Positions 5,136 to 64,000 of a DNA stretch of 64,000 nt are shown one piece after another; the first letter of the stretch is position 1; each line of letters opens with the position of its first letter. The stretch is taken from assembly GCA_016184455.1 (NCBI GenBank), contig JACPCS010000112.1:4822-68821 (forward strand), given 5' to 3'. A model generated the notes under the pieces. It was not told the DNA's origin. It made no database searches and saw only the letters and a program-made list of their open reading frames with translations. The position numbers and the translations under genes were made by a program. The stretch comes from Acidobacteriota bacterium (GTDB lineage: Bacteria; Acidobacteriota; Vicinamibacteria; Vicinamibacterales; UBA2999).

Positions 5136-5879
5136 TCAGAACCAGAGCTCGACCGCGGCGGTACCGCCCGGACGGACGATCACCGTATCCTGCGCGACCA
5201 CGTTGCCCGCGCCGGGGTTCGAGGTCTTCACGACGCGCACGGCGTGGAGCCCCATCGGAATATTCGAAAAGCTGAACGGCGCCGTCGACGCCGAGACCGA
5301 CGTCTGACTGCCGTCGGCCGCGTAATAGACATCCACGTGATAACCGACCGGGTCGACAATCGTCTTCTGGCCCTGCGTGGTCTTGACGGTCACGATGATA
5401 CTGCCCGTAATCGTCGGCGCCGCGGGCGGGTACACGATGTCGTCCGCCGTGTTGACCACGCCGTCGGTGCCCGCGCTCCGCACCTGCCCCGACGAGGCGC
5501 CCGTGTAAGGGCGTCCGAACCCGTCGTTCAGGTAGTCGGTCGCTGACGTGCCGACGTTGACATAGGGCCCGCGCCAGCCCATGCCGATGCTGCGCTCGGT
5601 GGCCGTCGTATACGACGGCAGGCTGCCCTGCTGCGCGAGCTCCTGGAACGAGGTGGGCAAGCGGCCGATGTCGCCGACGAAGCCGAATCGCGTTTCGCCC
5701 GACGAGGGCCCCACCATCGACTCGTACAGCACGCGTGCCTCGTCCTGCGTCGCCTGGATGCGCGACTCCCCGATTTGCTGGACGAAGGCCGGCGCGACGG
5801 CGGCAGCCAGGACGGCCAGCACGCCAAGAATCACGAGCAGCTCGATCAGCGTGAAACCTCGATTCGTCGCCGTTCTCAT
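5136..5879 (-). CDS. GspG-like prepilin/pseudopilin with a C-terminal beta-rich extension
   Basis: MRTATNRG|FTLIELLVILGVLAVL class III signal; GWRGPY, DGFGRPY and SAGTDG..ADDI motifs, followed by a ~90 aa extra domain. Confidence 0.85.
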   Translation of the reverse strand: MRTATNRGFTLIELLVILGVLAVLAAAVAPAFVQQIGESRIQATQDEARVLYESMVGPSSGETRFGFVGDIGRLPTSFQELAQQGSLPSYTTATERSIGMGWRGPYVNVGTSATDYLNDGFGRPYTGASSGQVRSAGTDGVVNTADDIVYPPAAPTITGSIIVTVKTTQGQKTIVDPVGYHVDVYYAADGSQTSVSASTAPFSFSNIPMGLHAVRVVKTSNPGAGNVVAQDTVIVRPGGTAAVELWF

Positions 5880-7093
5880 TGGATTACTCGCAGCAACTGG
5901 AAGAGCGGCAGGTAGAAGGCGAGCGCCATCAGCACGAACGTGCCGGCCAGCACGACCAGCATGATCGGGCCGAAGAGCGTCAGCGCGCGCTTGATGGTGC
6001 GCTCGACGTCGGCATCGAAGTACTTGCGCGTGTCCTCCAGGGCCTTTTCCATCCGGCCCGTCCGCTCGCCGAGCGCGATCATCTGAATCACCATCGGCGG
6101 GAACTCGCCGACCGCCCGCAGCGCACGCGAGAGCGATTCCCCGGCCATCACCCGCTGGACCGCCCGCCGGAACTGACTCGCCAGGTGCGCATGGCCGATC
6201 AGCTTCTCCACCAGCGTGAGCGACGGGGCGACCTCGAGGCCCGACTGGTGCAGCGTCGCAAAAGCGTGCGCGAACCGCGCGAGCGCGATCTTGCGGATGA
6301 GCTCGCCGACGATCGGTATCCGCGACACGATGCGGGACAGCCGTACGGATCCCTCGGGCGACTGGCCGTATACGCGGAGCGACACCACAACCGACAGGAT
6401 CCCGGTGAGGAAGATCGGCCAGTATCCGCGCAACACGGACGAGACCGCCATGACCATGCGCGTCGGGAGCGGCAGCGGGACCTGCGCGTTCAGTCGCTCG
6501 TAGACGTTGAGGAACCGCGGGATGGTGAAGCCGACGAGCACGAACGACAGCACCCCCAGCATGAAGATCACGATGATGGGGTAGGTGGCGACTTCGCGAA
6601 TGCGGTTGGCGAGCTCGGCCTGCCACTCGAGCTGCGCCACGAGATCTTCGAGCGCCCGCTCGATATTGCCGGTCGCCTCGCCCGCTTTGACGACGTTGAT
6701 GTACAGCTCGCTGAAGACCTTGGGGTGTCTGGCGAGGGCGGCCGAGAGCGCCTCGCCCGACTCGATGTCGCGACGCAGCGCGCCGACGATGCGCTTCATT
6801 GCCGGCTTGCGCAGCTCTTCCTCGATGTCCTGCAGGCCCTCGACGAGCCCGACGCCGGTCGCCATCACGGTCGACAGCTGGGTTGTGAACACGATCAGGT
6901 CCCGGCGGGTGACCCATTCGAGCACGCGAATCTCGGACAGGTTCGTGCCCGCGTCCGAGCCGGTCGAGGCGCGGACCAGGTAGTGCCCCTGCGCACGCAG
7001 GAGCGCCGCGAGCTGGTCCTCGGTGTCGGCGGCGGCGGTCCCCCGCACCTCGAGCCCGTTGTCGTCCACGCCCACGTAGCGGAAGTTCGGCAT
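5876..7093 (-). CDS. Type II secretion/type IV pilus inner-membrane platform protein (GspF/PilC family)
   Basis: MPNFRY start; two T2SSF domains (GEATGN, GERTGR); YP..V/PLPT and C-terminal YLPLF motifs. Confidence 0.93.
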   Translation of the reverse strand: MPNFRYVGVDDNGLEVRGTAAADTEDQLAALLRAQGHYLVRASTGSDAGTNLSEIRVLEWVTRRDLIVFTTQLSTVMATGVGLVEGLQDIEEELRKPAMKRIVGALRRDIESGEALSAALARHPKVFSELYINVVKAGEATGNIERALEDLVAQLEWQAELANRIREVATYPIIVIFMLGVLSFVLVGFTIPRFLNVYERLNAQVPLPLPTRMVMAVSSVLRGYWPIFLTGILSVVVSLRVYGQSPEGSVRLSRIVSRIPIVGELIRKIALARFAHAFATLHQSGLEVAPSLTLVEKLIGHAHLASQFRRAVQRVMAGESLSRALRAVGEFPPMVIQMIALGERTGRMEKALEDTRKYFDADVERTIKRALTLFGPIMLVVLAGTFVLMALAFYLPLFQLLRVIQ

Positions 7094-7098
7094 CGGTT

Positions 7099-8742
7099 CT
7101 ATTCGTACGCCACGCGCAGGACTTCTTCCAGCGTCGTCTGGCCGGCGGCCGCTTTCGCCAGCGCGTCGTCCATGAGCGTCGTCATGCCCGCGGCGACGGC
7201 CGCGCTCTTGACCTGGCGCGAGTCGCCGCGTTCGCGAATCAGCGTGTGAATCGCCGGGTCGATGACGAGCACCTCGAACACGCCCGTGCGGCCGCGGTAG
7301 CCGGTCTCGTTGCACCGGCTGCAGCCGCGGCCCCGCTGAAACTCGAGGCCCGAATCAGGGTTCGGGCCGACCTTCTTCAGCGTCTCCGCCGGGTAAGAGG
7401 CGGCCTCCTTGCAGTGCGGGCAGATCACCCGCACCAGCCGTTGTGCGATCACGCCTACAATCCCGGAGGCGAGCAGGTACGGCTCCAGTCCCATGTCCAT
7501 CAGACGGGGCACCGCGCCGGCCGAATCCTGCGTATGGAGCGTGCTGAAGACGAGAATCCCCGAGAGCGCCGCGCGCAGCGCGAGCTGCGCCGTTTCCGGA
7601 TCACGAATCTCGCCGATCATGATGATGTCGGGGTCCTGCCGCAGCAGCGCGCGAATCGCCGTCGCGTAGGTGAAGCCGGCCTTCGGGCGAACCTGCGTCT
7701 GGCGAATGGTCGGGATCTGGTACTCGACCGGATCCTCCACCGTGAGGATGTTTCGTTCCGTGCTCCCCAGGTATGCGAGCGCCGAGTAGAGCGTCGTCGT
7801 CTTGCCCGCCCCGGTCGGTCCGGTCACGAGCACGATGCCGCGCGACCGGCTGAGGATGTCGCGGAAGATCGCATACGTCGTGGGACTGAAGCCGAGCTCG
7901 GCAAGCCCGCGCACGAGCTTCTCTTTTTCGAGAATCCGGATCGCGACCTTCTCGCCGAAGGTGGTGGGGAAAGTCGCGACGCGCAGGTCGACGCGGCGCC
8001 CGTTCACCATCTGCGAGATCCGGCCGTCCTGCGGCAGCCGCTGCTCGGTGATGTCGAGGCCCGCGAGCACTTTGACGCGGCTGACGAGCGGCGCGTGCAG
8101 CTCCTTGGGAATCGTGTCGCTCGGGATGAGCACGCCGTCGATCCGATGGCGCACGCGGATCGTGAGGTCCTCGGGCTCGATGTGCAGATCCGTCGCGCCC
8201 CGGGCAATCGCGTCGTTGATGAGCAGCTCCAGCAGGCGGACGACCGGGGAGTCGATGGTAGCCACGTCGACCTGGGGCGTGCTGAGCGCGTCGACGCCTT
8301 CCTGCACGAGCTCGCTGACGCTGGATCGATCGGTGTACGAGCGCTCGATCAGGTTCAGCACGTCCTGTGCCCTGCCGCAGCTCACCCCCACCGGGCGCGA
8401 CACGAGCCGCTGGAGCTCGTCGACCGCGAGGACATCGAACGGATTGACCTGCAGGACCTCCAGCGTGCCGTTCTGCATCGTCAGCGGCACGAGCATGTAC
8501 TGCCGCGCGAACTGCTCGGGCACCATCGCGATGACGGATGGATCCGGCGTGAGGCCGTCGACCATCCTGAACGACACGCCGGCCTCCTGCGCCAGCGCGC
8601 GCGCGAGGTGCTCCTGGGTGATGAAGTTCAAGCCGAGCAGGATCTCGCCGAGCAAGGCTCCGCTGCTCCGCTGCTGCGCGAGCGCCTGCTCGAGCTGTGC
8701 GGACGTGATGATGCCGTCGGCGAGAAGTCGCTTCCCCAGCAC
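7099..8742 (-). CDS. Assembly ATPase, GspE/PilB family
   Basis: Walker A GPTGAGKT, TVEDPVE, RQDPDIIMIGEIRD, STLHT, tetracysteine CPHC/CSRC, MshEN-like N-terminus. Confidence 0.95.
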   Translation of the reverse strand: MLGKRLLADGIITSAQLEQALAQQRSSGALLGEILLGLNFITQEHLARALAQEAGVSFRMVDGLTPDPSVIAMVPEQFARQYMLVPLTMQNGTLEVLQVNPFDVLAVDELQRLVSRPVGVSCGRAQDVLNLIERSYTDRSSVSELVQEGVDALSTPQVDVATIDSPVVRLLELLINDAIARGATDLHIEPEDLTIRVRHRIDGVLIPSDTIPKELHAPLVSRVKVLAGLDITEQRLPQDGRISQMVNGRRVDLRVATFPTTFGEKVAIRILEKEKLVRGLAELGFSPTTYAIFRDILSRSRGIVLVTGPTGAGKTTTLYSALAYLGSTERNILTVEDPVEYQIPTIRQTQVRPKAGFTYATAIRALLRQDPDIIMIGEIRDPETAQLALRAALSGILVFSTLHTQDSAGAVPRLMDMGLEPYLLASGIVGVIAQRLVRVICPHCKEAASYPAETLKKVGPNPDSGLEFQRGRGCSRCNETGYRGRTGVFEVLVIDPAIHTLIRERGDSRQVKSAAVAAGMTTLMDDALAKAAAGQTTLEEVLRVAYE

Positions 8743-8757: not shown

Positions 8758-10179
8758 CTAACTCTCCACCCGCTGCGCCTTCAGGCGCGATACCTCGATG
8801 CGATGCTTCTTCACCAGGTGCCACACCGATCGCTCGGTAATTCCCAGCAGGCGCGCGGCGGCCGCCTGCACACCGCCCGCCCGTGCCAGCGCGTCGACGA
8901 CGAACGCCCGTTCGAGCTGCGCCACTTTCTCATCGAGCGACAGATTCTGCAGCCCGTCCCAACGACCCTGGCCGCCGTTGGTCGGCATCTCCGCGGGACG
9001 GATGGGCGGCGGGAAGCTGCTCAGGAGGAGGACGTCACCGTCGTTCACGACGACGGCGCGCTCGATCATGTTGCGGAGCTCGCGGACGTTCCCCGGCCAG
9101 CCGTACTCCATCAGCGCTGCCAGCGTGTCGGGCGCCAGGCGCGTGACGGCCCGGCCCAGACGGCTGTTGGCGTCGGCAAGGAAGTGGTCCGCCAGCTCGG
9201 GGATCTCGTCTCGGCGTTCCCGCAGCGGCGGGACGTGGACGGTGACGACGTTCAGCCGGTAGTACAGATCGTCCCGGAACGTCCCTTCGCGGACGGCCCG
9301 CTCGAGGTCCTTGTTCGTCGACGCCACGATGCGCACGTCGACCTTGATGGTCTGTATGCCGCCGACGCGTTGGAATTCGCGCTCCTGGAGCGCGCGCAGG
9401 ATCTTCGCCTGCGTCGCGAGCGTCATGTCGCCGATCTCGTCGAGCAGGAGCGTGCCGCCATCCGCCTGCTCGAACTTGCCGAGCTTGCGGCCGACCGCGC
9501 CGGTAAACGCGCCCTTCTCGTGTCCGAAGAGCTCGGACTCGAGGAGCGTTTCGGGAATCGCGGCGCAGTTCAGCTTCACGAGCGGCCTGGCGCGCCGGGC
9601 CGAGTTCTCGTGGATCGCCTCCGCAATCAGCTCCTTGCCCGTGCCGCTCTCGCCGAGGATGAGAACCGTCGAATCGGTCGAGCCGACGCGGTCGATGAGG
9701 CGCAGCACTTCCTGCATCGGGCGGCTCGACCCGACGATGCGGCCACGGCGCCCGGCGGTCAGCAGCTGCTCCCGCAGCCGCTCCACCTCGTGCATCAGCC
9801 GCCTCCGCTCGAGCGCGCGGCGGATGACGATTTCCATCTCATCGAGGCGGAACGGCTTCGTGAAGTAGTCGTAGGCGCCGCGGCGCACGGCTTCGAGCGC
9901 GGTGTCACGCGTCCCGTGCGCGGTCATCACGATGATGGGTGTGCGGAGGTCGATCTTCTGGATCTCATTGACGGCATCCAGTCCGCTCATGGCCGGCAGC
10001 CGGATGTCCATCAGGATCAGATCGAACTTCGATGTCTTGAGCGCCGCGAGCGCGTCTTCGGCGCTGCCCGCCACCGTCACGGCGTACTGCTGCCGTTCGA
10101 GCGCTTCCTTCAGGAAGAACTGCATCTGCGGGTCGTCGTCGACGGCGAGAATGTCGTACTTCGAGCTTTCTGCGTGCAT
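8758..10179 (-). CDS. Sigma54-dependent response regulator (NtrC/PilR family)
   Basis: REC domain (VDDD, MDIRLP, KP), GESGTGKE, ESELFGHEKGAFTGA, WPGNVREL, C-terminal Fis-type HTH. Confidence 0.95.
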   Translation of the reverse strand: MHAESSKYDILAVDDDPQMQFFLKEALERQQYAVTVAGSAEDALAALKTSKFDLILMDIRLPAMSGLDAVNEIQKIDLRTPIIVMTAHGTRDTALEAVRRGAYDYFTKPFRLDEMEIVIRRALERRRLMHEVERLREQLLTAGRRGRIVGSSRPMQEVLRLIDRVGSTDSTVLILGESGTGKELIAEAIHENSARRARPLVKLNCAAIPETLLESELFGHEKGAFTGAVGRKLGKFEQADGGTLLLDEIGDMTLATQAKILRALQEREFQRVGGIQTIKVDVRIVASTNKDLERAVREGTFRDDLYYRLNVVTVHVPPLRERRDEIPELADHFLADANSRLGRAVTRLAPDTLAALMEYGWPGNVRELRNMIERAVVVNDGDVLLLSSFPPPIRPAEMPTNGGQGRWDGLQNLSLDEKVAQLERAFVVDALARAGGVQAAAARLLGITERSVWHLVKKHRIEVSRLKAQRVES

Positions 10180-10186
10180 GGGTGCC

Positions 10187-11680
10187 TCAGGTCTGTAATG
10201 CAGCTTCGATCTTCTCGGCCACGGCGGTCGCGAGCGGCAGCTCCACGACGAACGTCGTTCCGGTGTCCGGGCCGCTGTCCACGTCGATGCGGCCGTCCAT
10301 CGACGTGACGATCTGGCGTGCGATGGCGAGCCCGAGCCCCGTCCCGGTCGGCTTGGTGGTGAAGAACGGGACGAAGAGCTGCCGCTGCACGTGCGGCGGA
10401 ATGTACGAGCCGGTGTTGTGCACGGACACGAACGCCTGCCCGTTCTGCGGCTCGGCCCGCACGGTCACGGTGCCGCCGTCCGGCGTCGCCTGCGTCGCGT
10501 TGAGCACGATGTTCGTCAGGGCCTGGAGCAGGCGCTCGCGGTTGCCACGGATCAGGAGCGGCCGGCCCGATGCCGCAATCGCGAGCGTCACCGCCCGATC
10601 GCCCAGGCCGTGCTGCGCGAGCGAGATCGTCGCCTTGACGGCGTCGACGACGTCGACGTCTTCGCTGTCCACGGGACGCGGCGCCGAGAAGAGCAGCAGA
10701 TCCTCGATCAGCCGGTTGAGCCGGTCGATCGAGTCGAGCATCGTCTTGATGTAGCGCCGCCGCGTCTCGTCGGCGCCCACATCGCGGCCCAGCAGCTCGG
10801 CGAGGCCGCGCAGCGACGCGAGCGGGTTCCGGATCTCGTGCGCGACGCCCGCGGTCACGGTGCCGAGCGCGACGAGCTGGTCGGTCTGCTGGAGGCGCGC
10901 CTGCAGGCTGCGCATCTGATTGAGGTCTTTGAAGGCGATCATCACGCCCACGATTTCGCCCGATCGCGCCTTGGGATCCTGGCGGCCGGCTTTAGCCGGC
11001 CCGGAGCTCTGCTGGAGGTACGAGGCAGAAATGCCGATTCGTACGGGCCGTCCGTCGGCGGCGAGAATCTCCAAGTCCTCGAGCGACACCGGTTGGCGCC
11101 GGGAGATGGCGGTTTCGACCGCGGTGAGCGACGCGCGGCTGCCCGACGCAGGTGTGAACACGTCGCTGAATCGCCGGCCGACGAGGTCCTCCTCGCGGTA
11201 GCCGAGCGTCGCTTCCGCCGCTGGGCTGGAGCCGATCACGCGCCCCTCCGCGTCGAGCGTGATCACGGCGCCCGTCATGCTCTGGAAGAAGTAGCGCTGC
11301 AGCGCCGACAGCGCGTCATTGAACGCGCCGCCAAGTGAGTCGAGCTCCTTGGTCGAGGCGATGCTCAGCGCGCCGCGGAAATCACCCGACGCCAACGCTT
11401 CGAGCTGCTCCGTCACCTGGCGGACGGGCCGCGTCACCCCAAGCGCGATGCTGAAGCCGAGGAGCGCCGCGACCAGCGAGATCGCCGCAATCTGCACCCC
11501 CAGCTGCGCCAGCATGTTGCTGCCCACGACGTCGGTGCCGTAGAAGAGGTACAACCGGCTCGTCATGTTGAGCGTGAAGAACCCGGTGGCCGCGACGAGC
11601 AGCGCCATCGTGAGCGGCAGCACCACGAGGAGCTTTGCGCGCGTCGCGCGGTGGGCCGCCGTAAGGGGACGAGTGGTCAT
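10187..11680 (-). CDS. Sensor histidine kinase (2 TM, HAMP, PAS, HisKA, HATPase; PilS/NtrB-like)
   Basis: AHEIRNPL H-box, N-box NIVLNA, PFFTTK..GTGLGL G2 box. Confidence 0.92.
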   Translation of the reverse strand: MTTRPLTAAHRATRAKLLVVLPLTMALLVAATGFFTLNMTSRLYLFYGTDVVGSNMLAQLGVQIAAISLVAALLGFSIALGVTRPVRQVTEQLEALASGDFRGALSIASTKELDSLGGAFNDALSALQRYFFQSMTGAVITLDAEGRVIGSSPAAEATLGYREEDLVGRRFSDVFTPASGSRASLTAVETAISRRQPVSLEDLEILAADGRPVRIGISASYLQQSSGPAKAGRQDPKARSGEIVGVMIAFKDLNQMRSLQARLQQTDQLVALGTVTAGVAHEIRNPLASLRGLAELLGRDVGADETRRRYIKTMLDSIDRLNRLIEDLLLFSAPRPVDSEDVDVVDAVKATISLAQHGLGDRAVTLAIAASGRPLLIRGNRERLLQALTNIVLNATQATPDGGTVTVRAEPQNGQAFVSVHNTGSYIPPHVQRQLFVPFFTTKPTGTGLGLAIARQIVTSMDGRIDVDSGPDTGTTFVVELPLATAVAEKIEAALQT

Positions 11681-12198
11681 GGCGTCTTCGTCCCGGATCC
11701 TGGCGATTTCAGCGCGAGCGTCCGGCGGCCGCGTGCGGCCGACTCGAGGACGACCGCCTTTGGCAGGATGTCCACGACCTTCGAATCAGCCACCATATCC
11801 CCGACGCGGACGATGCGGCCGTCTATGAGCGCCAGGCGCCGCTCCGGCGAGTGCAGAATCGAGGCGATCTCCGGATCCGCGGCCGGTGCCGAAGCCGGCG
11901 AGGGTGTCTCAGCCGCCGTCGTCTGGACGATCGCCGGCTTCAGCCCTCGATGCTCGAACGGATCGCGCGCCCACACCGGCACGCGAATGAGCTCGACGTC
12001 GGGGAGCTGTTGCGGGTGCGATGGATCGAAGGCGGCCGCCGGCGCGGCGGCAGACGTAGGCGCCGGCGTGCTGGCCGGAGGCTGTGTGGCGGCGGCAGAT
12101 CGATTCGGCGCGGGCCGCGTGAAAACCCAGATGTTGTAGACGATGCTGCCCGCGAGGAGCATCAGCGAGACGATCACGTGCTGTCGTCCCAGCTTCAC
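11677..12198 (-). CDS. PilP/MshK/GspC-like assembly protein
   Basis: N-terminal TM, Pro/Ala linker, RDPF motif, SILHS...ALIDGRIVRVGD beta domain; position downstream of pilO. Confidence 0.6.
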   Translation of the reverse strand: MKLGRQHVIVSLMLLAGSIVYNIWVFTRPAPNRSAAATQPPASTPAPTSAAAPAAAFDPSHPQQLPDVELIRVPVWARDPFEHRGLKPAIVQTTAAETPSPASAPAADPEIASILHSPERRLALIDGRIVRVGDMVADSKVVDILPKAVVLESAARGRRTLALKSPGSGTKTP

Positions 12199-12815
12199 CG
12201 CCGCCCTCCAGCCGGCACCACGTCGCCCGGTTGCCGCGCAAACGCAAACAGGGTCAGCGTCATGTGTACGCGGCCGTCCCCGGTTTCAGTGGATCTCATC
12301 TCGAGCGTGCGGATCTCGACGACGGTCGGCGGATCCCGCAACTGCCACAGGAACTGGCCGGCGGCGGCGTACGGGCCGTCGAACGCCATCGTGATCGGCA
12401 GAAATGCCAGCGGGACCTCGAACAGCGCGATCCGCGGATCGGGCACCGCGCTGGCTGCCTGGGGCCCCGTGCCGACGGTCACCGCCGTCCGCTGTCCGGT
12501 CTCGATCGTGAGGTTCGTCACGCCTGCCTGCTTCGCAAGCGTCGCGAGGCGCTCGAACACCTGCGCCGACGCATCACGCGCCGCCACCTGACGTTCGAAC
12601 GCCGCTCGCGCATCGCCCGACACGGTGGCCGGCCGCGGCCCGGTCAGTGATCGGCGCACCGCCGCCAGCCGCTGCTCCAGCGCCTGCAGCTGCCGCGCGC
12701 TCTCGGCGCCGCTCGCCATCGTCGGGCGCACGAGCAGCAGCCAGCCGAACACCACGATGAGCAGCGGCAGCGCAAAGGGCGCGAAGTGCCTGAGACGCGC
12801 GGTGTCGAGCTTCAT
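12195..12815 (-). CDS. PilO/GspM-like alignment protein
   Basis: TM plus coiled coil plus ferredoxin-like segment (ITMAFDGPY..GQFLWQL); operon context. Confidence 0.7.
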   Translation of the reverse strand: MKLDTARLRHFAPFALPLLIVVFGWLLLVRPTMASGAESARQLQALEQRLAAVRRSLTGPRPATVSGDARAAFERQVAARDASAQVFERLATLAKQAGVTNLTIETGQRTAVTVGTGPQAASAVPDPRIALFEVPLAFLPITMAFDGPYAAAGQFLWQLRDPPTVVEIRTLEMRSTETGDGRVHMTLTLFAFARQPGDVVPAGGRR

Positions 12816-55940: not shown

Positions 55941-56717
55941 CTATCGGGTCCCCCCAGACACGAGCGCATGGATGTCGTCGAAACTGTCGGTGGCGAGCGT
56001 CGGCGTCGTCGCCGCAAACGCGGTGTCGACGCGGGCATTCGGACCCGCAGACAGGACCACCACGTCGTTCTCGCTCGGGCTGCTCCCGGATGGGTGCCCG
56101 AGGAACTCGACGTTTGCCATGTACCGATAGCCCCACGGATCGGGGCCGACGATGGGCGTCAGGTACGCGCCGCGCCAGTAGAACTCGCTGTTCCCCTCGT
56201 CGCCCCCGTCCGGGTCGAACTGGGCGGCCACGTTCATCTCGGCTGCGCTCCGGTACGCCGGTTGGTTGGCCACGAGCTGGTCGTAGAACGACCACACGTC
56301 GGCGCTGGCCCCGGGCGTATCGAGCGTGTCGTCCCAATCCGTGTTGCCAGGCGCGCGGTCGACTGAGGTCTCAATCGTCGGAATCATCCCGTTGCCGACC
56401 AGCAGGTTGACGCGATTGGTGGAGCCACGGGAGGGCGGGTCGGTCGTCGTCGTGCCGTTGCCGTCGCGCAGGAAGAACGTTTCGCCGATATCGGTCAGCA
56501 TCCGGCTCATCGCCGCCGCCAGCACGGCGACATCCTCTTGTGCGCGGGCCTGACGCGACGCGTCGATGTAATCGCGGATGGACGGCGCCAGCACGGCCGT
56601 CAGCGCGGAGATCACGGCGAGCACGACGGTCGCTTCGACGAGCGACATGCCGCCCTCCGTACGGAACTCTCTAAGCCCAACGCCCAACGCCCAAAGCCGA
56701 GAGTCCTTACTTCGCAT
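55941..56717 (-). CDS. GspG-like prepilin paralogue
   Basis: G|MSLVEATVVLAVI; WRGAY, PDPWGYRY, SAGPN, DDI motifs. Confidence 0.87.
   Translation of the reverse strand: MRSKDSRLWALGVGLREFRTEGGMSLVEATVVLAVISALTAVLAPSIRDYIDASRQARAQEDVAVLAAAMSRMLTDIGETFFLRDGNGTTTTDPPSRGSTNRVNLLVGNGMIPTIETSVDRAPGNTDWDDTLDTPGASADVWSFYDQLVANQPAYRSAAEMNVAAQFDPDGGDEGNSEFYWRGAYLTPIVGPDPWGYRYMANVEFLGHPSGSSPSENDVVVLSAGPNARVDTAFAATTPTLATDSFDDIHALVSGGTR
56673..56707. repeat. Degenerate heptamer tandem repeat (A(A/C)GCCCA) in a prepilin leader
   Basis: aagccca-acgccca-acgccca-aagccga-gagtcct. Confidence 0.7.
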
Positions 56718-57591
56718 GCGAGCTCACCAGGTAGATGAAATCGTCGTCGCCCGGCACGGCCCCGTCCTGGGCCGACTTCGTGTCGATTTCCTCGTCGGCG
56801 CCGGCCGAGAGCACGAACACGTCGAGGCGATAGTAGTCCGAGGCCGACCATCCCGAGGTGATGTTGCTGACCGTGTCCGTTGGCGACGGATCCAGGAACG
56901 CCACGTTGACCGTGTAGCGGTTCCCCCACGGATCCGGATCGGCCGGGCTGCGCAGGTACGGGCCGCGCCACGCGTACGGGGCATTGGAACCGCTCGAGTC
57001 AGTGCGCGCAAAGTCGATGTTGTTGCCGCCGGGCGAGGCCACGGAGACATCGGTCGGATGCCGGTAACGGGTCGTGCCCTGCGATGTCCCGTCCGACGAC
57101 AGTGGCGCATTGTCGATCAGATGGTTCGCCAGCGTGTCGACGGTGGTGCTGTTCACCGCCTGCGTCCAGTACGATTCGGTCGAGACCGCGGTGGCCAGGG
57201 TCGGGACGTCGCCGTCGCTCACGAGCAGGTCGACGCGGTTCGTGTCTGCGCGCGTCGGCGGATCCGAGTCGTCGCTGCCGTTGCTGGCGTTTCGCAGGAA
57301 CTGGTGCTCGGCATTGTCCTCGATGAAGTCCTGGATCGCCTCCGCAATCGTCTGGACGTCCTCCCTGGTGCGCGCTTGCCGCGCCTGCTCGATGTAGCCG
57401 TTGATGGCCGGCGACAGCACGGCCGACAGCACGGCGACGACCGACAGGATGATCGATGCCTCGACGAGCGACATGCCGCGCTGCGCGCGCAAATCCCAAA
57501 CCCCAAACCCCAAACCCCACAATGATGGCGACACTGCTCTTTGGGATTTGGGATTTGGGATTTGGGTGTTGACGTAATCGATGATCTTCAT
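56707..57591 (-). CDS. GspG-like prepilin paralogue with a repeat-encoded leader
   Basis: ATG 57591; leader QIPNPKSQ...LWGLGFGVWDL; RG|MSLVEASIIL; WRGPY, DPWGNRY, GDDDF motifs. Confidence 0.87.
   Translation of the reverse strand: MKIIDYVNTQIPNPKSQRAVSPSLWGLGFGVWDLRAQRGMSLVEASIILSVVAVLSAVLSPAINGYIEQARQARTREDVQTIAEAIQDFIEDNAEHQFLRNASNGSDDSDPPTRADTNRVDLLVSDGDVPTLATAVSTESYWTQAVNSTTVDTLANHLIDNAPLSSDGTSQGTTRYRHPTDVSVASPGGNNIDFARTDSSGSNAPYAWRGPYLRSPADPDPWGNRYTVNVAFLDPSPTDTVSNITSGWSASDYYRLDVFVLSAGADEEIDTKSAQDGAVPGDDDFIYLVSSHAK
57490..57567. repeat. Two inverted arms of 4x heptamer repeats (CAAACCC / TTTGGGA)
   Basis: caaatcc-caaaccc-caaaccc-caaaccc (57490-57517) and tttggga x3-tttgggt (57540-57567). 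Confidence 0.9.
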
Positions 57592-58198
57592 GGCACCGTC
57601 AGCCCTTCGTCCCGCCATCGGGACCAGCGGAGATCACGAACGTGTCATTGGACGTCGAGGTCTTTAGATACTCCACGTTGACGGCGTAGCGGTTGCCCCA
57701 TGGATCCGGATCGATCGGCGCGTTCATGTAGGCGCCTTTCCAACCGCCTGTGGAGGTGGAATACGAACCGACGCCGCCGAGGCTGCTGTTCGTGACGAGG
57801 TGTCCCTCCATGAACACAACGTCGACCGTTGGAGAGCAGGTTGTCGTCGTCACGTCATCCCAGTTGGCGCCGCCGCCGGAGCCGAGCGCTGGAATGTCGC
57901 CGTCGCTGACCAGCACCTCGACGACGTCGCCGCCCGATGCGCCGGTGCACGTGAACGGCCTAAAGAGCGTGTGCTCGTCGATGAAGTTGTCGATCGCGGT
58001 GGCGATCGCGTCCACGTCGGACTGCGCCCGGCTCAGCCGTGCCCGGTCGAGCGCGCGCGAGGCGGCCGGCGCCGCAGCCGCGACGAGCACGGCCCCGACC
58101 GTCAGGATGATCGTCGCCTCGATCAACGAGACGCCCTGGCCTGAGCGAGCGCGGGCCGCGAGGGGCGCGCGAGTCGAACGGCCGCGCTCGCCTCTCAT
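57588..58198 (-). pseudogene. GspG-like prepilin paralogue with a C-terminal deletion/frameshift
   Basis: G|VSLIEATIIL; ORF ends SAGPDGGTKG* (57599) without the E.DT...DDI tail. A shifted frame reads RDEGLTVP* (stop 57588), matching the neighbour's RDPGRTVP*. Confidence 0.7.
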
Positions 58199-58863
58199 GG
58201 CACCGTCCGCCCCGGATCGCGCCGGACGATGACGAGGATGTCATCCTCACCTGGCTTGATCCTGTTGATGTTGTACGCGGTGTCGATTTCCTCGTCCGGT
58301 CCGGCCGAGAGCACGATGACATCGACGTCGCGCGACGACGTGATCAGCCGCTGCGTATTCACCGCATAGCGGTTGCCCCATGGATCAGGATCGACCGGGC
58401 CGTTCAGGTACGCCCCACGCCAGTAGCCGTTGTTGCCGACGGTGGTGGAATAGTCGTTCGCCACGTCTCCGCGCGGGTTGTTGGTCACCAGATGCCGCTC
58501 GAGGAAGTCGACCAGCCCAGTGGTGTTATTGACCGGATCGTCCCACTCTGTGCCGCCGCTGCCGATTGCCGGAATGTCGCCGTCACTGACCAGGATATCG
58601 ACGGGGGTTCCGTTCTGGTTCCCGATCCCCTCGATCGTGAAACCTATGTTCTGGCCCTGCGAATTCCCGGTCATGTCGGTCAGGAAGTTGACGATGGCGG
58701 TCTTGATCGCTTCCTCGTCGGTGACCACGCGGACCAGTCGGGCACGCTGGATTGTGCGTGCCGCGCTCGGCGCGGCCGCCGCCGTGAGCAGGGCCACCAC
58801 CGCCAGCACGACCGTCGCCTCGACCAGAGTGATCCCGTACGCCGAGCGCCAGCATCGCCTCAT
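58195..58863 (-). CDS. GspG-like prepilin paralogue
   Basis: G|ITLVEATVVLAVVALL; SDGDIP, WRGAY, DPDPWGNRYAVN, SAGPDEEIDT, EDDI motifs. Confidence 0.87.
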   Translation of the reverse strand: MRRCWRSAYGITLVEATVVLAVVALLTAAAAPSAARTIQRARLVRVVTDEEAIKTAIVNFLTDMTGNSQGQNIGFTIEGIGNQNGTPVDILVSDGDIPAIGSGGTEWDDPVNNTTGLVDFLERHLVTNNPRGDVANDYSTTVGNNGYWRGAYLNGPVDPDPWGNRYAVNTQRLITSSRDVDVIVLSAGPDEEIDTAYNINRIKPGEDDILVIVRRDPGRTVP

Positions 58864-58867
58864 CGGG

Positions 58868-59539
58868 TCATGACTCCAGCAGGACAATCAAATCGTCGCC
58901 GCCGGCGCTCAGCGAGGTCGCCTCGAAGACGGTCTCGATGATCTCGTTCTGGCCGGCGGACAGGACCACCACATCGTTGGTCGAGTTGGGATCCAGCCAC
59001 TGCGAGTTGATCATGTACCTGTTGCCCCACGGGTCCGGGTCGAGCGGTGCATTCAGGTACGGCCCGCGCCATCCGCGCGCCGGGGCTTCCGGGTTGCCCA
59101 GCTCGTTGTAGGCCGGGGCGGCGGCGCCCACCAGATCGTTCAAGACGAGGTGCCGCTCGAGGAAGTCGTACCGCGTGGTCGACGAGTTGACGACTGCCGT
59201 CTGCCACGTTGCCATCGTGGCCGCGTCGCTCACCTCGCGCGGGATATCGCCGTCGGTGACGAGCAGGTAGACGATGCGGCTCGAGTTGTTCGAGGCGTCG
59301 AAGGTGAAGATCTTCACCTGCATGTCGTCCTGGAAGGCGAGGACCGCCGTCTGGATATCGGTCATCGCGTCCGACGCCGCAGTATTCCTCGCGTTGCGGA
59401 CGACGGCGACGAGGGTCGGCGCAAGCGCGAACACGATGACAGCCGTGACGATGAGCATCAGCGAGACCTCGAGCAGGGTGACGCCGGCTTCGTCTGTCAG
59501 CGGCTCGGGGCGTTGGACTGTGGCCTTCGCGAGCATCAC
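58868..59539 (-). CDS. GspG-like prepilin paralogue
   Basis: G|VTLLEVSLML; TDGDIP, GWRGPY, DPDPWGNRY, GDDL motifs. Confidence 0.87.
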   Translation of the reverse strand: MMLAKATVQRPEPLTDEAGVTLLEVSLMLIVTAVIVFALAPTLVAVVRNARNTAASDAMTDIQTAVLAFQDDMQVKIFTFDASNNSSRIVYLLVTDGDIPREVSDAATMATWQTAVVNSSTTRYDFLERHLVLNDLVGAAAPAYNELGNPEAPARGWRGPYLNAPLDPDPWGNRYMINSQWLDPNSTNDVVVLSAGQNEIIETVFEATSLSAGGDDLIVLLES

Positions 59540-60330
59540 TGGATCCGGATGACGATGTCGTCGCCGTAGGCGCGCGCGTCGATGATCGGCTGCTCGAACG
59601 GCGTCTCGATGATCCCGTTGTTGCCCGCGGAGATCACGAAGACGGCGCGACGCGGGCGGCCCTCGCCGTCAGCCGCCGTGCTGCCGCCGTCGAGCCACTG
59701 CGAGTTGACGAGGAACTGGTTGCCCCACGGATCGCCTTTGAGCTCGGCGCTCACGTACGGCCCGTTCCAACCGCCGTACTCGCCCGGCCTGCGCAGCCGG
59801 TATCCCTTGCGATTCGTCCGGAGGTGATCGTCCAGCGACTCGGCCGGCGTCTCACGCCACTGCCGCCGCTCGACGGGTGTCGCCTCGGCCGAGCTTGCTG
59901 CGCCCGATCTGACGAACAGATTCAGCACCGGCAGCATCGACGCGTGGCCGACGCCGTCGCCGGCGTCTTCGGTCTGCGGCGGATCGCCGGCGCTGGCCAG
60001 CACGCCAGGCAGCCGCATCGGCGTGGGGGCGGCAAAGCCCGCGCTGCCCATGCCCGCGCTGGCCATGGCTAGGCCGTCGCTGGCCCGGACGGCCATCGCG
60101 CCGGCCACGCCCGCGCCGCCGTACGCGAGCGCGTCGCCGCCAAGGTCCTTTTGCAGATTGATCAACCCCATCGCGATCATCGAGGCGTCGTTCTTGGCCT
60201 TCACCGCGCGGGCCGTCGTCACCGACTCGGACACGATCGGCGACATGGCGCCTGCCAGGATGAAGAGCACCGACAGGATGACCGTGGTCTCGATGATGGT
60301 GATGCCGCGTTCACTGTGTCGCTCGATCAC
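59536..60330 (-). CDS. GspG-like prepilin paralogue (first gene of the pilin operon)
   Basis: GGAGA RBS; RG|ITIIETTVIL; GWNGPY, DPWGNQF, SAGNNG.IET, GDDI motifs. Confidence 0.87.
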   Translation of the reverse strand: MIERHSERGITIIETTVILSVLFILAGAMSPIVSESVTTARAVKAKNDASMIAMGLINLQKDLGGDALAYGGAGVAGAMAVRASDGLAMASAGMGSAGFAAPTPMRLPGVLASAGDPPQTEDAGDGVGHASMLPVLNLFVRSGAASSAEATPVERRQWRETPAESLDDHLRTNRKGYRLRRPGEYGGWNGPYVSAELKGDPWGNQFLVNSQWLDGGSTAADGEGRPRRAVFVISAGNNGIIETPFEQPIIDARAYGDDIVIRIQ

Positions 60331-60405: not shown

Positions 60406-60421
60406 AGCAAGCGACGTGCCC
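60406..60421 (-). promoter_or_regulatory. Sigma54 -24/-12 promoter of the pilin operon
   Basis: Minus strand GGGCACGTCGCTTGCT (near-consensus); AT-rich tract upstream; palindromes at 60484-60498 and 60530-60544. Confidence 0.8.
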
Positions 60422-60567
60422 GGCTGAAGTGAGGATGTAAGTTGCTGTATATGAGTTGGTTAACTCGAAGGACCGGCGCCGAACTACACAATCTGATGGT
60501 GGTGGGATCGTTCGGCCCCGGTTTGCACCCCACAGAGTTTGTAGCCGTTTGTTGAGGACGAGGTATC

Positions 60568-62927: not shown

Positions 62928-63055
62928 CTAGTTGAGAGCGATGATGCCCGACCGCGTTTCGTCGGTCAAGCATGCGTCAGGGCCGCAGGCGGCAACGATC
63001 AGGGCGTCAAGGACACGAGTGCCACGATGCGCACACTCCGCGCAGGAATCTTTCT

Positions 63056-63655
63056 TTACGCTGCGCGGCGATCCGCCTCAGCGGTGAATCGCGAGCGGTC
63101 GCGATATCCGTCGAGGCCGATGACGGTGGAGCTCCACCGAGGATCCTTCAGCGCCCGCAGCGCCCGGAGCACGACGGGGTCGAGCGCCGCCTCATCCCGC
63201 TGCTCCAACATGTCGATCGCCTGTCCCACGGGTGCGGCCGGATCGGCGGCGAGCTCATCGTACGCGTCGGCCACCGCGACAATGGCCGCACCCATCGCAC
63301 GTACGTCAGTCCCGCTCCTCGCCAGCATCCCCATGGCCAAGGCGCGAGCCGCAGCCGCGATGGCGGCGGCACTGGCGAGAAAGGGCACGTCCCGCATGAC
63401 GGCGTAGAGAACGGGCTGTTCGACCTCGTGCAGCAGCGCCGCGCGCTCGATGTCGGAGACGTGCGGCTCCGGAATCTCCAGCACGAGCGCGAGGTCGACG
63501 GCCAGGCGCGACACCCGGCGCGCGTGCTCGAGGGCGTCACCGCCGCGGCCGCGTGCCAGCAGCCTCGCGACGCTCATCGCGTTCAACTCCAATTGCTCGA
63601 ACGCCAGCGTGATCCCCGGGTGTCGGCCCGGCTCATCGAACAGTGGGTCGTCCAT
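63056..63655 (-). CDS. Degenerate, shortened HD-GYP-like protein
   Basis: HARRV...AALLHEV (HD changed to HE)...IVAVADAYDEL...LDPVV; the GYP loop is absent. Confidence 0.6.
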   Translation of the reverse strand: MDDPLFDEPGRHPGITLAFEQLELNAMSVARLLARGRGGDALEHARRVSRLAVDLALVLEIPEPHVSDIERAALLHEVEQPVLYAVMRDVPFLASAAAIAAAARALAMGMLARSGTDVRAMGAAIVAVADAYDELAADPAAPVGQAIDMLEQRDEAALDPVVLRALRALKDPRWSSTVIGLDGYRDRSRFTAEADRRAA

Positions 63656-64000
63656 GACCTGCCCCCATCGAAGACACGACCGCTACGATGTCGTCGCCAA
63701 TCGCCGGCAACCCATACAGTCCGAATGGCGTCTCGGCGACGCCATTTGGTCCGGCACTGAGCACCACCGTGTACGAGTCCCCCTCCCTCATCGCCTGCAC
63801 GTTCACACCGTAACGATTTCCCCAGGGATCCGGTTGCACGACCTGCTGCAAGTACGCCCCTCGCCAGCCGAACCACGCGCCCGGGTCGCGTGGGGTATAG
63901 CCGGCGGTATTCGTGATCAAGTGGTCATCGACAAGGCCGACCCCTCCACCTTCGATCGCGGCGCCCCACTGGTCCGTGCCGTCCCCGTAGACCGCTGGCG
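63633..64000 (-). CDS. GspG-like prepilin paralogue, 5'-partial (runs off window)
   Basis: DDHLITN, GWRGAY, PDPWGNRYGVN, SAGPNG.AET, GDDI motifs. Confidence 0.85.
   Translation of the reverse strand, partial: PAVYGDGTDQWGAAIEGGGVGLVDDHLITNTAGYTPRDPGAWFGWRGAYLQQVVQPDPWGNRYGVNVQAMREGDSYTVVLSAGPNGVAETPFGLYGLPAIGDDIVAVVSSMGAGHGRPTVR

Follow-up and report, generated by a model that had tools for sequence, protein, structure and literature searches.

Control of pilA by the two-component system PilS-PilR is a feature of the type IVa pili of Pseudomonas, Geobacter and Myxococcus, and PilF of Thermus possesses three GSPII domains. The pilins of Thermus are described, in excerpts of one study, as resembling the pseudopilins of type II secretion systems (T2SS) (PMC5131608). 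According to excerpts of two others, the MshEN domain binds c-di-GMP, and c-di-GMP drives the extension of the MSHA pilus (PMC5013675, PMC7096442). This pilus of Vibrio and Shewanella belongs to the MSH class, which is reported, in the excerpted text of Denise et al. (2019, PMC6668835), only for Gamma- and Epsilonproteobacteria and Chrysiogenetes.

A filament- or secretion-type machine that is conserved yet unstudied is encoded by an uncultured groundwater acidobacterium, whose genome comprises 4.73 Mb and is 92.8% complete. The window, i.e., the whole 64,000-nucleotide stretch of DNA analysed, contains three blocks: a machine operon (5136-14362, minus strand), a 33-kb polysaccharide locus (16643-49649, plus strand) and 12 prepilin genes (49999-64000, minus strand). 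The genes listed in the initial annotation for the machine operon, the Wzx/Wzy glycan locus and the prepilin array were all recovered in Pfam and NCBIfam profile searches. Its overall interpretation stands as far as a non-ordinary T2SS, the linkage of machine and array and the σ54-type pilin promoters are concerned, but not with respect to the linkage of the glycan genes or to a single σ54 regulon. The window holds two separate entities, namely a conserved type IV filament (TFF) gene cluster and a Wzx/Wzy polysaccharide locus. It is reasonably probable that the former encodes a T2SS/MSH-hybrid type IV filament system controlled by c-di-GMP and σ54, from which the polysaccharide locus is separate; the term “hybrid” is suggested by profile scores and gene content. 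The T2SS-like share consists of GspL/M/C-like assembly proteins and of the ATPase, the platform and a GspG-fold pilin in E-F-G order, whereas the MSH-type share comprises an MshL-like secretin, an MshM/ExeA-like ATPase, a TPR protein, the MshEN domain on the assembly ATPase and a locus devoid of a prepilin peptidase.

All genes of the machine operon lie on the minus strand, and its end is convergent with a plus-strand gene for a PilZ-domain protein (4751..5134; PF07238, 50.9 bits). The operon pilin, here termed pilinM (5136..5864; N_methyl match), occupies the gspG position 3' of gspE-gspF, a placement after GspF that is kept in relatives, and combines a prepilin signal and a GspG-fold domain with a C-terminal β-sandwich. 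Its AlphaFold2 (AF2) model (pLDDT 87.5) matches EpsG with a Z-score of 10.1 and an rmsd of 2.2 Å across 95 residues, and structure comparison of the same model suggests that residues 148-240 are transthyretin/CnaB-like (Z 7-9). The GspF/PilC-type inner-membrane platform (T2SSF, 5876..7093; PF00482, 171 bits) reaches 296.7 bits with the GspF model TIGR02120, against a cut-off of 424, and 261 and 238 bits with PilC models. The assembly ATPase (7099..8742; T2SSE, 417.9 bits) carries an N-terminal, c-di-GMP-binding type MshEN domain (50.2 bits) and exceeds the cut-off of the MshEN motif model NF053729 (58.4 vs 38), its GspE and PilB scores (561.9 and 529) both being below the respective cut-offs. 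Next come a σ54-dependent response regulator with REC, AAA+ and HTH_8 domains (8758..10179; PF00158, 244.7 bits; PF00072) and with GAFTGA at residue 223, encoded in a genome with a single rpoN, and a sensor histidine kinase for which profiles and transmembrane (TM) prediction indicate two TM segments, HAMP, PAS, HisKA and HATPase (10187..11680). The remaining genes encode a PilP/GspC-like bitopic protein (11677..12198; one N-terminal TM; weak matches to T2SSB, E 2e-4, and GspC_delta, E 0.0026), a PilO/GspM-like bitopic protein (12195..12815; one TM; weak match to GspM_XpsM, E 0.0024), both conserved in position among relatives, and a PilM-PilN fusion of GspL/MshI-like architecture (12812..14362; PilM_2, E 8e-5; Amuc_1101 family, E 7e-12), with a cytoplasmic actin-like domain, a predicted TM near residue 335 and a periplasmic part. 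No prepilin peptidase was found within the locus, and matches in the genome are limited to two other contigs (C39 and C31). Past the array, beyond the window, the cluster continues on its contig (C41:69454-78155) with another pilin, a REC-HD-GYP regulator, a TPR protein, an MshM-like ATPase, an MshL-like secretin and a GldG-ABC transporter. MshL is the top-scoring NCBIfam model of the secretin, although it and the model nearest to MshM both remain below their cut-offs.

The window contains 13 prepilin genes: 11 complete ones in the array (49999-60330), one cut at the window end and pilinM, with one more beyond. The array genes are all on the minus strand and were assigned by a pilin tree of 62 sequences to seven classes: G (49999..50778, mature part from 50601, and 51260..51940, 74% identical to this neighbour), F (52031..52897, 54120..54923 and 54927..55832), E (55941..56717), D (56707..57618), C (57599..58198 and 58195..58887), B (58868..59539) and A (59536..60330), which opens the 11-gene run with a GTG start. 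The twelfth is represented by its 3' part (63633..64000), the gene extending to C41:69128. Classes A-G occur in the same order in loci G0, L005, L003, L004 and L007/L033, the support being starred in most cases, and the F-G unit is duplicated; the initial count of at least 13 GspG-like pilins is correct, but these genes are not equivalent, representing about seven ancient collinear orthogroups. Common to all prepilins are the motifs G-(F/M/V/I)-(S/T)-L-x-E, W.G.Y and DPWGNRY, with an invariant Glu at alignment position 6, which becomes position 5 once the signal has been cleaved off behind the conserved Gly. The class C pilin encoded at 58195..58887 was modelled with a pLDDT of 90.6 as a GspG fold with insertions, comparable to EpsG (Z 8.5) and PulG (Z 7.5) and much less to MshA (Z 3.1). 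Its top ten Foldseek matches are all GspG-type pseudopilins, with weak E-values of 0.2-1, and EpsG is the best of 48,161 chains for both this model and that of pilinM. The richness in Ser, Thr, Asn, Asp and Gly noticed earlier is real, with these residues making up 43.7% of the globular parts of the pilins vs 26.1% in the other proteins of the window. The array is interrupted by a plus-strand PIN-domain toxin gene (53681..54100; PF01850), and upstream of the 11-gene run, profile searches revealed a lipoprotein gene (61283-61792) between two Phd/YefM-PIN toxin-antitoxin pairs, one on the plus strand (60569-61245) and one on the minus strand (61789-62447). A degenerate HD-domain protein is encoded at 63056..63655 (minus strand; HD_5 below cut-off) and, judged by eye, looks like a remnant copy of the REC-HD-GYP regulator.

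The order of the cluster in relatives is ABC-GldG, secretin, MshM, TPR, (REC-HD-GYP), pilins, PilMN, PilO, PilP, (histidine kinase,) response regulator, GspE, GspF and pilinM. It is contiguous in the related Acidobacteriota MAG loci L023, L004, L008, L009, L012 and L007+L033, in three of which (L008, L009 and L012) no kinase homologue was detected, and each related cluster encodes 3 to 13 pilins. In 18 other sampled genomes of the organism's own family the cluster is absent; it may be a recent acquisition, and is possibly poorly integrated or not expressed. This DNA was found in no RNA run.

Conserved σ54-type promoters precede the pilin genes, in line with what had been proposed. At the array head, GGGCACGTCGCTTGCT (60406..60421, minus strand) is located 76 nt 5' of the GTG start, and a further, σ54-like site, GGGCATGGCAGTTGCT (52954-52969), lies ahead of the class F gene at 52031..52897. 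Sites equivalent to that of the array head recur in 10 of the 11 related loci scanned, as 16-mers oriented like the gene and located 56-198 nt upstream of the conserved Gly codon in class A or class F pilins. On the plus strand, identical copies of AGGCACAGCCATTGCT, whose flanks have diverged, are found before the second of two PilZ-REC genes (site 15596..15611; gene about 15637-16388) and 97 nt ahead of the first glycan gene (16531..16546). The first PilZ-REC protein (14683..15450, plus strand; PilZ and Response_reg) has a homologue, at 53%, inside the cluster of L007. The sequence GGCAC-N5-TTGCT occurs 14 times in the 4.73-Mb genome, three of these sites being in the window (0.19 expected); a loose consensus with two mismatches shows no overall enrichment in the window (50 matches vs 59.75 expected), and σ54 sites across the genome need not be those of this regulator. 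The scanned region upstream of the machine operon revealed no σ54 site. The initially reported shared promoter motifs therefore hold for the array head, the PilZ-REC gene and the first glycan gene but not for the machine operon, and “one σ54 regulon” is an overstatement because this operon lacks such a promoter. Instead, it is preceded by a palindrome-like motif, CTACAAAACCTGT(AG) (14463..14475, minus strand), with GATAAT 17-20 nt further on, which together form a putative σ70-type promoter and operator. The motif is kept 5' of PilMN in L003, L023 and L017 and has two matches in the window vs 0.11 expected. The second copy, CTACAAA..CTGT (60532..60544, minus strand), lies 124 nt upstream of the array-head σ54 site and is a candidate enhancer for the regulator, although only 3 of 17 σ54 sites examined have the palindrome at a like distance. 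Direct reading of the divergent intergenic region also revealed three tandem GTGCATTTG(G/T) repeats (14562..14590, minus strand), with 10 nt deleted at 14562 in one run.

In the hybrid filament system that we favour, the machine operon, kinase and regulator genes included, would be transcribed from the σ70-type promoter. The histidine kinase would then phosphorylate the σ54 enhancer-binding regulator, which in turn would activate the σ54 promoters of the class A (array head) and class F pilin genes, comparable to the action of PilS/PilR on pilA. Binding of c-di-GMP to the MshEN domain of the ATPase would license polymerisation; the REC-HD-GYP phosphodiesterase would adjust this signal, and the PilZ proteins would sense it. 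Once matured by a prepilin peptidase encoded elsewhere, the pilins would form a surface filament, assembled via the secretin and taken to be an adhesive pilus, with classes F and G and the β-sandwich pilin as its presumed abundant subunits and classes A to E as low-abundance ones.

The cluster could also be the organism's divergent T2SS, although this is rather unlikely. Folded proteins would then be exported via the secretin by a short periplasmic pseudopilus consisting mainly of the GspG-plus-β-sandwich pilin, with the array pilins acting as minor or alternative, cargo-matched pseudopilins. The E-F-G gene order, the top profiles of ATPase and platform (GspE and GspF), the weak GspM and GspC matches and the best structural match of both pilin models, EpsG/PulG, are consistent with such a function, as are the lack of the disulphide that characterises T4a pilins (no Cys in 11 of the 13 pilins) and a genome in which neither another GspG-like gene nor, outside the cluster, an ATPase above the GspE cut-off was found. 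However, none of the machine components reaches a Gsp equivalog cut-off in NCBIfam, no GspH/I/J/K-like genes were found, every pilin being GspG-like, and the accessory genes are of MSH type, with a secretin scoring best as MshL, MshM and TPR partners and the MshEN domain of the ATPase; on these grounds the view that this is not an ordinary T2SS is upheld. Moreover, a set of seven conserved pilin classes that have σ54 promoters of their own is closer to the major and minor sets of a pilus than to a pseudopilus, and the system is missing from 26 of 31 relatives.

Even less probable is the integrated envelope apparatus of the initial annotation, in which Wzy_C would O-glycosylate the Ser/Thr-rich pilins with the sugar of the polysaccharide locus, yielding glycosylated filaments or a surface layer under one σ54 regulon. 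The three blocks are indeed physically nested here, the left junction of the glycan locus being spanned by contigs from four runs, both blocks are flanked by PilZ proteins, and the composition of the pilins and the σ54-type site ahead of the first glycan gene would suit such a scheme. The Wzx/Wzy-dependent locus itself, all on the plus strand, encodes a PCP-tyrosine kinase (18156-20432), two GT4 glycosyltransferases, a C5-epimerase, E1 alpha and beta subunits, a GHMP kinase, three DegT aminotransferases, epimerases, a split transketolase, an AKR, Wzx (about 34900-36365), an ATP-grasp protein, a methyltransferase, Bac_transf (41973-42632), a PglF-like protein (42593-44557), Wzy_C (44481-45968), a BBP2_2 porin (47058-48275), Wza (48265-49098) and a HAD protein (49101-49649). 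It contains, besides Wzy_C, a second Wzy-like membrane protein with nine TM segments and no family match (37492-38865), so one of the two could be a ligase rather than a polymerase. Nevertheless, Wzy_C matches no curated ligase or oligosaccharyltransferase family in NCBIfam, the locus encodes its own complete export set (PCP, Wza and porin), as expected for a free polysaccharide, and the machine operon has no σ54 promoter. Above all, the postulated linkage of three blocks is borne out for machine and pilin array, which are contiguous in relatives, but not for the glycan genes, which are present in none of the related clusters. The PCP and Wza homologues are found either on other contigs or at distances of 79 kb to 2.3 Mb; in the eight genomes whose contigs are long enough, 79 kb to over 2 Mb separate the polysaccharide export genes from the cluster, and in all five f38 genomes the nearest PCP or Wza gene is no closer than about 79 kb. 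In G031 there are only partial PCP homologues, more than 380 kb from the cluster, in G032 the distance is 1.15 Mb, and in G033-G035 they are on other contigs, while in G028, with its contig taken as circular, Wzy_C and PilMN are more than 1.1 Mb apart. Among 31 relatives, Wzy_C homologues occur in 16 and the machine (PilMN) in five, with no correlation, Wzy_C being common without the machine. Since the related clusters are free of glycan genes and export genes are distant in the eight genomes, the glycan locus is a genome-specific insertion, an independent capsule or EPS pathway located between pilin array and machine operon in this genome only, and a glycosylated-filament system is not supported. 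Because the 16-mer at its head is identical to the σ54 site before PilZ-REC, local co-regulation, and with it a functional link to the filament cluster in this genome, is possible; at most, the locus has been co-opted locally into the same σ54/c-di-GMP control via the promoter at 16531.

It is very improbable, finally, that the array proteins are cargo or surface-anchored proteins using the class III signal and displayed individually, like the archaeal bindosome sugar-binding proteins: their large, variable and hydrophilic middle regions, their high copy numbers and a weak match of the ATPase to the bindosome ATPase family (33.6 bits vs a cut-off of 1000) would fit, but all members keep the GspG core that packs into a pseudopilus (invariant Glu, W.G.Y and DPWG motifs), and the models predict compact pilin folds without a ligand-binding domain.

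When compared with known systems, the locus recalls the PEP-CTERM/exosortase EPS systems (Haft; NCBIfam TIGR03015, TIGR02915-7) in that the XrtA/PEP-CTERM-associated ATPase model is the top-scoring one for the MshM-like ATPase (267 bits) and PrsT for the TPR protein, in that the regulator reaches 430 bits with PrsR, and in that export parts of the glycan locus resemble EpsE, EpsF/G and EpsL. Yet all these scores are below cut-off, the paralogous family carries N-terminal class III signals instead of C-terminal sorting signals, and the analogy drawn earlier fails on the exosortase, none of which was found in the 92.8%-complete genome. With PilS-PilR it shares a two-component system within a pilus gene cluster and an NtrC-family regulator expected to drive a pilin gene from a σ54 promoter; in contrast to the six-TM PilS type, however, the kinase has two TM segments, HAMP and PAS, at least two promoters of a multi-gene array would be targeted, and the regulator scores no better than generic AtoC/NtrC models. 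The Thermus thermophilus pilin cluster provides, with PilF, the best solved match of the assembly ATPase (504 bits, top PDB match), PilF differing from the latter by its three GSPII domains. In the excerpts of the works concerned, however, this cluster has a small number of pilins, which belong to different families, and it appears without a σ54 two-component system and without MshL/M partners (PMC5131608, PMC11731258). The T2SS (Gsp/Eps/Pul) has in common with the locus the E-F-G order, GspE and GspF as top profiles, a secretin, a GspL-like fusion protein, weak GspM and GspC similarity and the GspG fold of all pilins, DPWG.xY motif included. It differs in having GspH, I, J and K and one GspG gene, vs up to 14 GspG-like genes here with scores below equivalog cut-offs, and the MshEN domain, the MshM/TPR partners and the σ54 promoters of the pilin genes also set the locus apart. 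From the MSHA pilus it is distinguished by pilins with the GspG rather than the MshA fold (Z 8.5 vs 3.1), by the histidine kinase and σ54 regulator embedded in the operon, by the one-family array of 3-13 pilin genes, the GldG-ABC transporter and the REC-HD-GYP regulator, and by its hosts, which are Acidobacteriota plus scattered Lentisphaerota, Planctomycetota and others. Nonetheless, as judged from the excerpted account of MSH loci, the two share an ATPase with an N-terminal MshEN domain, the L-M-N gene order (short MshL-like secretin, MshM/ExeA-like ATPase, TPR protein), a PilM-PilN fusion followed by PilO-like and PilP-like genes, comparable to mshI-J-K, and a locus without a prepilin peptidase that contains several consecutive pilin genes (PMC6668835).

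Two components that lie interleaved in this region, a filament cluster that is conserved among relatives and a polysaccharide locus nested within it, have to be considered separately. The region corresponds to G000:C41:4822-68821, within a 4.73 Mb genome of 162 contigs that is 92.8% complete; the GC content is ~68%, and genes were called by third-position GC. Its DNA is present in five metagenome DNA runs from two studies, four of which may be the source samples; all five are groundwater DNA, and none of the runs matching the region is an RNA run carrying the pilin array. The machine operon spans 14362-5136 on the minus strand. Its first gene encodes a PilM/PilN fusion (PilMN) with a transmembrane (TM) segment near residue 335 and a GspL/MshI-like architecture, followed by PilO/GspM-like and PilP/GspC-like proteins with one TM each, a histidine kinase with two TM, HAMP and PAS, a REC-sigma54-AAA-HTH_8 regulator in which GAFTGA is present, a T2SSE ATPase whose N-terminus carries an MshEN c-di-GMP domain and, at the 3' end, a T2SSF platform protein and then a prepilin, referred to here as the operon pilin. 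The minus-strand pilin array comprises 11 complete GspG-like prepilin genes from 49999 onwards, plus one cut by the window end.

The initial annotation closed the system at the window end, which cuts it short, because contig C41 continues with two further pilins (one of them the truncated gene), a REC-HD-GYP response regulator, a Pro-rich TPR protein, an ExeA/MshM-type ATPase, a 540-residue secretin and a GldG-type ABC-2 transporter; the secretin module is part of the filament system. The transporter, with its GldG-like auxiliary protein (PF09822), adjoins the cluster at C41:74917-78155 (locus L001) and also occurs at L008-L013, L016, L019, L024-L026, L033, L060, L061 and L073; it lies directly ahead of the ATPase in distant Acidobacteriota, beside pilins in Lentisphaerota/Victivallales MAGs, and is found in close relatives too, so that it looks like a conserved partner of the filament cluster. 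Three PIN toxin genes (53681-54100, 60569-61245 and 61789-62447), two of them with Phd/YefM antitoxins, have inserted in and beside the pilin array, and the region is thus genomically fluid. Outside the system, a protein with DUF7685, DUF7686 and DUF7713 is encoded at 353-961 on the minus strand.

The pilin alignment, scanned against 185,579 species genomes, yielded 71 loci, almost all from MAGs labelled Acidobacteriota or Vicinamibacterales, against which the window proteins were compared by tblastn. A co-oriented order is conserved in L023, L004, L008, L009, L012 and L007+L033, running from the ABC ATPase, ABC permease, GldG, secretin, MshM-like protein, TPR protein and, in some cases, REC-HD-GYP through the pilin array to PilMN, PilO, PilP, kinase, regulator, ATPase, platform and operon pilin. 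The arrays of related clusters hold 3 to 13 pilins each, and no kinase homologue was detected in the clusters of L008, L009 and L012. In two long-contig MAGs the secretin of the cluster is spread over two to four frames (G031:C3:997538-999120 and G032:C2:1496467-1497958), reflecting either frameshift errors or pseudogenisation.

The initial annotation had joined the machine, the glycan locus and the pilin array into one linked system, and had itself proposed that linkage in relatives should decide the matter. By that measure the glycan block is unlinked, since tblastn returned zero matches to glycan-locus proteins in the related clusters. Homologues of its PCP-tyrosine kinase in the two closest long-contig genomes are found only at >380 kb (a partial one) and 1.15 Mb from the cluster, and those of three other genomes on contigs other than the cluster's; in five genomes of another family, assembled in megabase contigs, no PCP/Wza gene lies within ~79 kb of the array. 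Likewise, among 31 relatives PilMN occurs in 5 and a Wzy_C homologue in 16 with no correlation between them, and two of the four relatives that have the machine carry a Wzy_C homologue, on another contig or >1.1 Mb away (>1.1 Mb from PilMN in G028, a single-contig genome). The nesting of the glycan locus in the filament cluster is nevertheless real, yet specific to this genome: the junction of PilMN, PilZ-REC and glycan head is spanned by contigs of four runs, possibly the source samples, in a check that used run contigs alone and carries no gene ranking or transcript information. Only short, chance-level repeat matches flank the block. The nesting of this 33-kb glycan locus in the cluster is not evidence of one system; comparative synteny dissolves the link.

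The locus itself (16643-49649, plus strand) is complete for a polysaccharide pathway of the Wzx/Wzy type and brings its own export genes, for PCP-tyrosine kinase, Wza and BBP2_2 porin. It encodes an initiating phosphoglycosyl transferase, a PglF-like dehydratase and three DegT aminotransferases, together with unusual TPP-enzyme, transketolase and GHMP-kinase genes, and its membrane proteins comprise Wzx, Wzy_C and another, with 9 TM, that matches no family. Between 23538 and 33947, TPP-dependent dehydrogenase E1 alpha/beta, a split transketolase, the GHMP kinase, an aldo-keto reductase, an ATP-grasp protein and a heparosan-type C5-epimerase domain form an unusual combination of enzymes, suggestive of a sugar that is modified or branched. 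Most simply, the locus makes its own capsule or EPS; where it sits in this genome, and the promoter it has there, may cause it to be expressed together with the filament, as a biofilm island. Nothing indicates pilin glycosylation. Wzy_C, considered as a PglL/TfpO-type O-oligosaccharyltransferase, is neither linked to nor co-distributed with the pilin genes in the related clusters and the 31 relatives.

The pilins form a single family, whose HMM finds 14 members on C41, including the operon pilin, and three more elsewhere in the genome (C18, C144 and C137); no other GspG-like gene is present in the genome. Their identity to the reference is 31-39%, with one pair at 74%, and Ser, Thr, Asn, Asp and Gly make up 43.7% of their globular parts, compared with 26.1% of the other window proteins. 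At the sequence level the GspG model TIGR01710 scores 33-46 bits against a cut-off of 88.85, 6 of 11 scanned array pilins exceed the PF08334 cut-off, and the pilin profile matches PDB entries at the N-terminal helix only (MshA, for example, at E 0.0036). An AlphaFold model of one array pilin, built from an 87-sequence alignment (pLDDT 90.6), was compared by VIA-align with 48,161 solved chains and best resembles Vibrio cholerae EpsG (Z 8.5, rmsd 3.5 A over 105 residues, 28% identity), followed by the PulG pseudopilus (Z 7.5) and other pilins at Z <=5.4; the Shewanella MshA pilus subunit gives Z 3.1, weak yet compatible with that fold. The top ten Foldseek rows for this model are all GspG-type pseudopilins at weak E-values of 0.2-1, none reaching E <= 0.001. 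The operon pilin (pLDDT 87.5) is likewise predicted to adopt the GspG fold (EpsG, Z 10.1, rmsd 2.2 A over 95 residues), and its C-terminus is modelled as a transthyretin/CnaB-like beta-sandwich, a common fold (Z 7-9). Since EpsG and PulG are the best structural matches of both models, calling these pilins GspG-like appears correct by predicted fold, while by sequence they fall below the GspG equivalog cut-off.

They are not 13 equivalent subunits. In a maximum-likelihood tree, the 62 pilins of this genome and eight related loci fall into seven classes, A to G, most with starred support; ORFs scoring <100 bits, lacking G-x-[ST]-x-x-E or with a mature part of <150 residues had been dropped beforehand, as had two L033 rows duplicating L007 on the same contig. 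The order A-B-C-(C)-D-E-F-G recurs in this genome and in L003, L004, L005 and L007/L033, and lineage-specific duplications have affected class C, class F (present here in three copies) and F-G units. A sublineage (L008, L012) has classes F and G only, plus the operon pilin.

With respect to regulation, rpoN is present as a single copy in the genome. A weighted scan for TGGCAC-N5-TTGCA-type sites found gene-strand sites in 10 of 11 related loci (L007 being the exception), 56-198 nt ahead of the Gly codon in pilin genes of class A or F. In the window, such sigma54-type sites precede class A at the array head (60406-60421) and, in weaker form, class F (52954-52969), and an identical sigma54-type 16-mer is found at 15596, before the second PilZ-REC gene, and at 16531, before the first gene of the glycan locus. 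Of the 14 GGCAC-N5-TTGCT sites in the genome, three fall in the window (0.19 expected), whereas the consensus with two mismatches gives 50 matches there against 59.75 expected, the strict form alone being enriched. No sigma54-type site lies upstream of the machine operon, for which reason the proposal of one sigma54 regulon was too strong: the pilin genes are sigma54-type and the glycan head possibly so in this genome, and the machine operon drops out. What precedes that operon, as in L003, L023 and L017, is a palindrome-like CTACAAA..CTGT(A/T)G with a GATAAT-like hexamer after it. As the palindrome occurs again 124 nt ahead of the sigma54 site at the array head (two matches in the window, 0.11 expected), and a like motif lies at 122-134 nt in 3 of 17 sigma54 sites examined, it is weakly proposed as a candidate regulator binding site.

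Other motifs were noted in the same scans. The GGGCTTGCG motif has three matches, all upstream of PilMN/pilin genes, a number reached in 8 of 100 shuffles; it was dropped as a promoter because it lacks the GG of the -24 element. Identical or near-identical copies of the array-head and PilZ-REC 16-mers precede genes for a secreted protein (C132:7274, minus), a small exported protein (C136:84676, minus) and a REC-domain protein (C2:5184, plus), and these genes may belong to that regulon as well. A perfect sigma54 consensus, TGGCACTGCCGTTGCA, at 1824-1839 on the minus strand lies inside the longest frame of a KGG-repeat stress protein gene (1467-1937), suggesting that this gene is shorter than that frame and has a sigma54 promoter. 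Three tandem GTGCATTTG(G/T) repeats occupy 14562-14590, between PilMN and PilZ-REC, and their copy number varies in the population, given a 10-nt deletion in one of four groundwater runs.

The pilin family is present in 30 of 401 sampled Acidobacteriota genomes (~7%; 29 of 400 without one unpublished genome, G081), concentrated in a few families. Within the organism's own family the pilins are absent from all 12 other sampled genomes and PilMN from all 18, and this points to patchy inheritance or horizontal transfer. The 881 metagenome homologues at E <= 1e-10 bear generic names only, either prepilin-type domain protein or GspG/PulG. No description of this cluster or of GspG arrays in Acidobacteriota was found in the literature searched; the word "Acidobacteria" has no occurrence in the main text of PMC6668835, whose supplementary tables, listing all detected and "generic" systems, may include relatives.

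Pilin genes can be under the control of PilS/PilR. By analogy, the kinase and regulator of the machine operon would switch on the pilin genes, c-di-GMP would license the ATPase, and the HD-GYP regulator and PilZ proteins would tune this signal. Prepilins would be matured by a peptidase encoded elsewhere, and a filament of GspG-fold subunits would be extruded through the MshL-like secretin for attachment. We infer this working from PilS/PilR, from the anatomy of the cluster and from MshEN-c-di-GMP biology (PMC5013675 and PMC7096442). A broader reading, offered tentatively and on balance rather doubtful, would be that of an undescribed filament machine between T2SS and MSH, widespread in uncultured soil and groundwater Acidobacteriota, which builds a heteropolymer of seven ordered GspG-fold pilin classes, with A to E for initiation or tip, sigma54-driven F/G as an exchangeable shaft and the beta-sandwich GspG as adhesin, and which acts with the GldG-type ABC transporter under c-di-GMP control, the polysaccharide locus being wired here into the same sigma54/c-di-GMP circuit as a single biofilm island. 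Classifications of type IV filaments generally recognise a small number of classes, each with a single major subunit. A cluster that joins T2SS and MSH parts to seven GspG-like pilin classes, kept in a fixed order and with sigma54 promoters of their own, would be useful for understanding the step from pseudopilus to pilus, the ordering of heteropolymeric filaments, and surface attachment in bacteria that are abundant in soil and groundwater but uncultured.

The main rival explanation is a secretion role, the cluster being a divergent T2SS. The catalytic part of the ATPase alone scores slightly higher with GspE (391 bits) than with PilF (373), and over its full length the best-matching solved structures are those of Thermus PilF and Geobacter PilB. 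Against the equivalog models, the ATPase reaches 561.9 bits for GspE TIGR02533 (cut-off 630.25) and 529 for PilB, the platform 296.7 bits for GspF TIGR02120 (cut-off 424), and the GspM and GspC matches stand at E ~0.002. No GspH, I, J or K gene is found in the cluster, the GspH/GspI models matching only at the N-terminal helix. Other filament systems of the genome comprise a true PilB/PilT/PilC system (C119), one that resembles Tad (C31) and one of no assigned class (C161); only the C119 ATPase is a PilB equivalog, those of C161 and C114 being unclassified. As for PEP-CTERM systems, no exosortase (EpsH/XrtA, PF09721) match was obtained in the 92.8%-complete genome, and the PEP-CTERM domain PF07589 gave none, but its control search matched no genome either; the MshM-like ATPase adjoining the secretin has as its only match, among models of which none is specific to MshM, the PEP-CTERM-associated ATPase TIGR03015, at 267.4 bits (cut-off 324.5).

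In comparison with MSH, the defining set given by Denise et al. (PMC6668835) is mshA, E, G, L and M, with no peptidase in the locus. Here the MshEN domain of the ATPase (PF05157 50.2, cut-off 23.1; NF053729 58.4, cut-off 38), the platform and the missing peptidase agree, prepilin peptidase (PF01478) being found only on C39 and C31; L and M are matched only below cut-off, the secretin (PF00263, 141 bits) having MshL TIGR02519 as its best model (215.6 bits, cut-off 250.2) ahead of GspD (171) and PilQ (150), and the pilin match to MshA is the weak structural one. In comparison with T2SS, no component attains a T2SS equivalog cut-off, GspH-K are absent, and the cluster pilins all belong to one GspG-like family. 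The earlier judgement that this is not an ordinary T2SS therefore stands, and the cluster is provisionally placed, by its profile scores and gene content, in the type IV filament superfamily as a variant that is a hybrid of T2SS and MSH.
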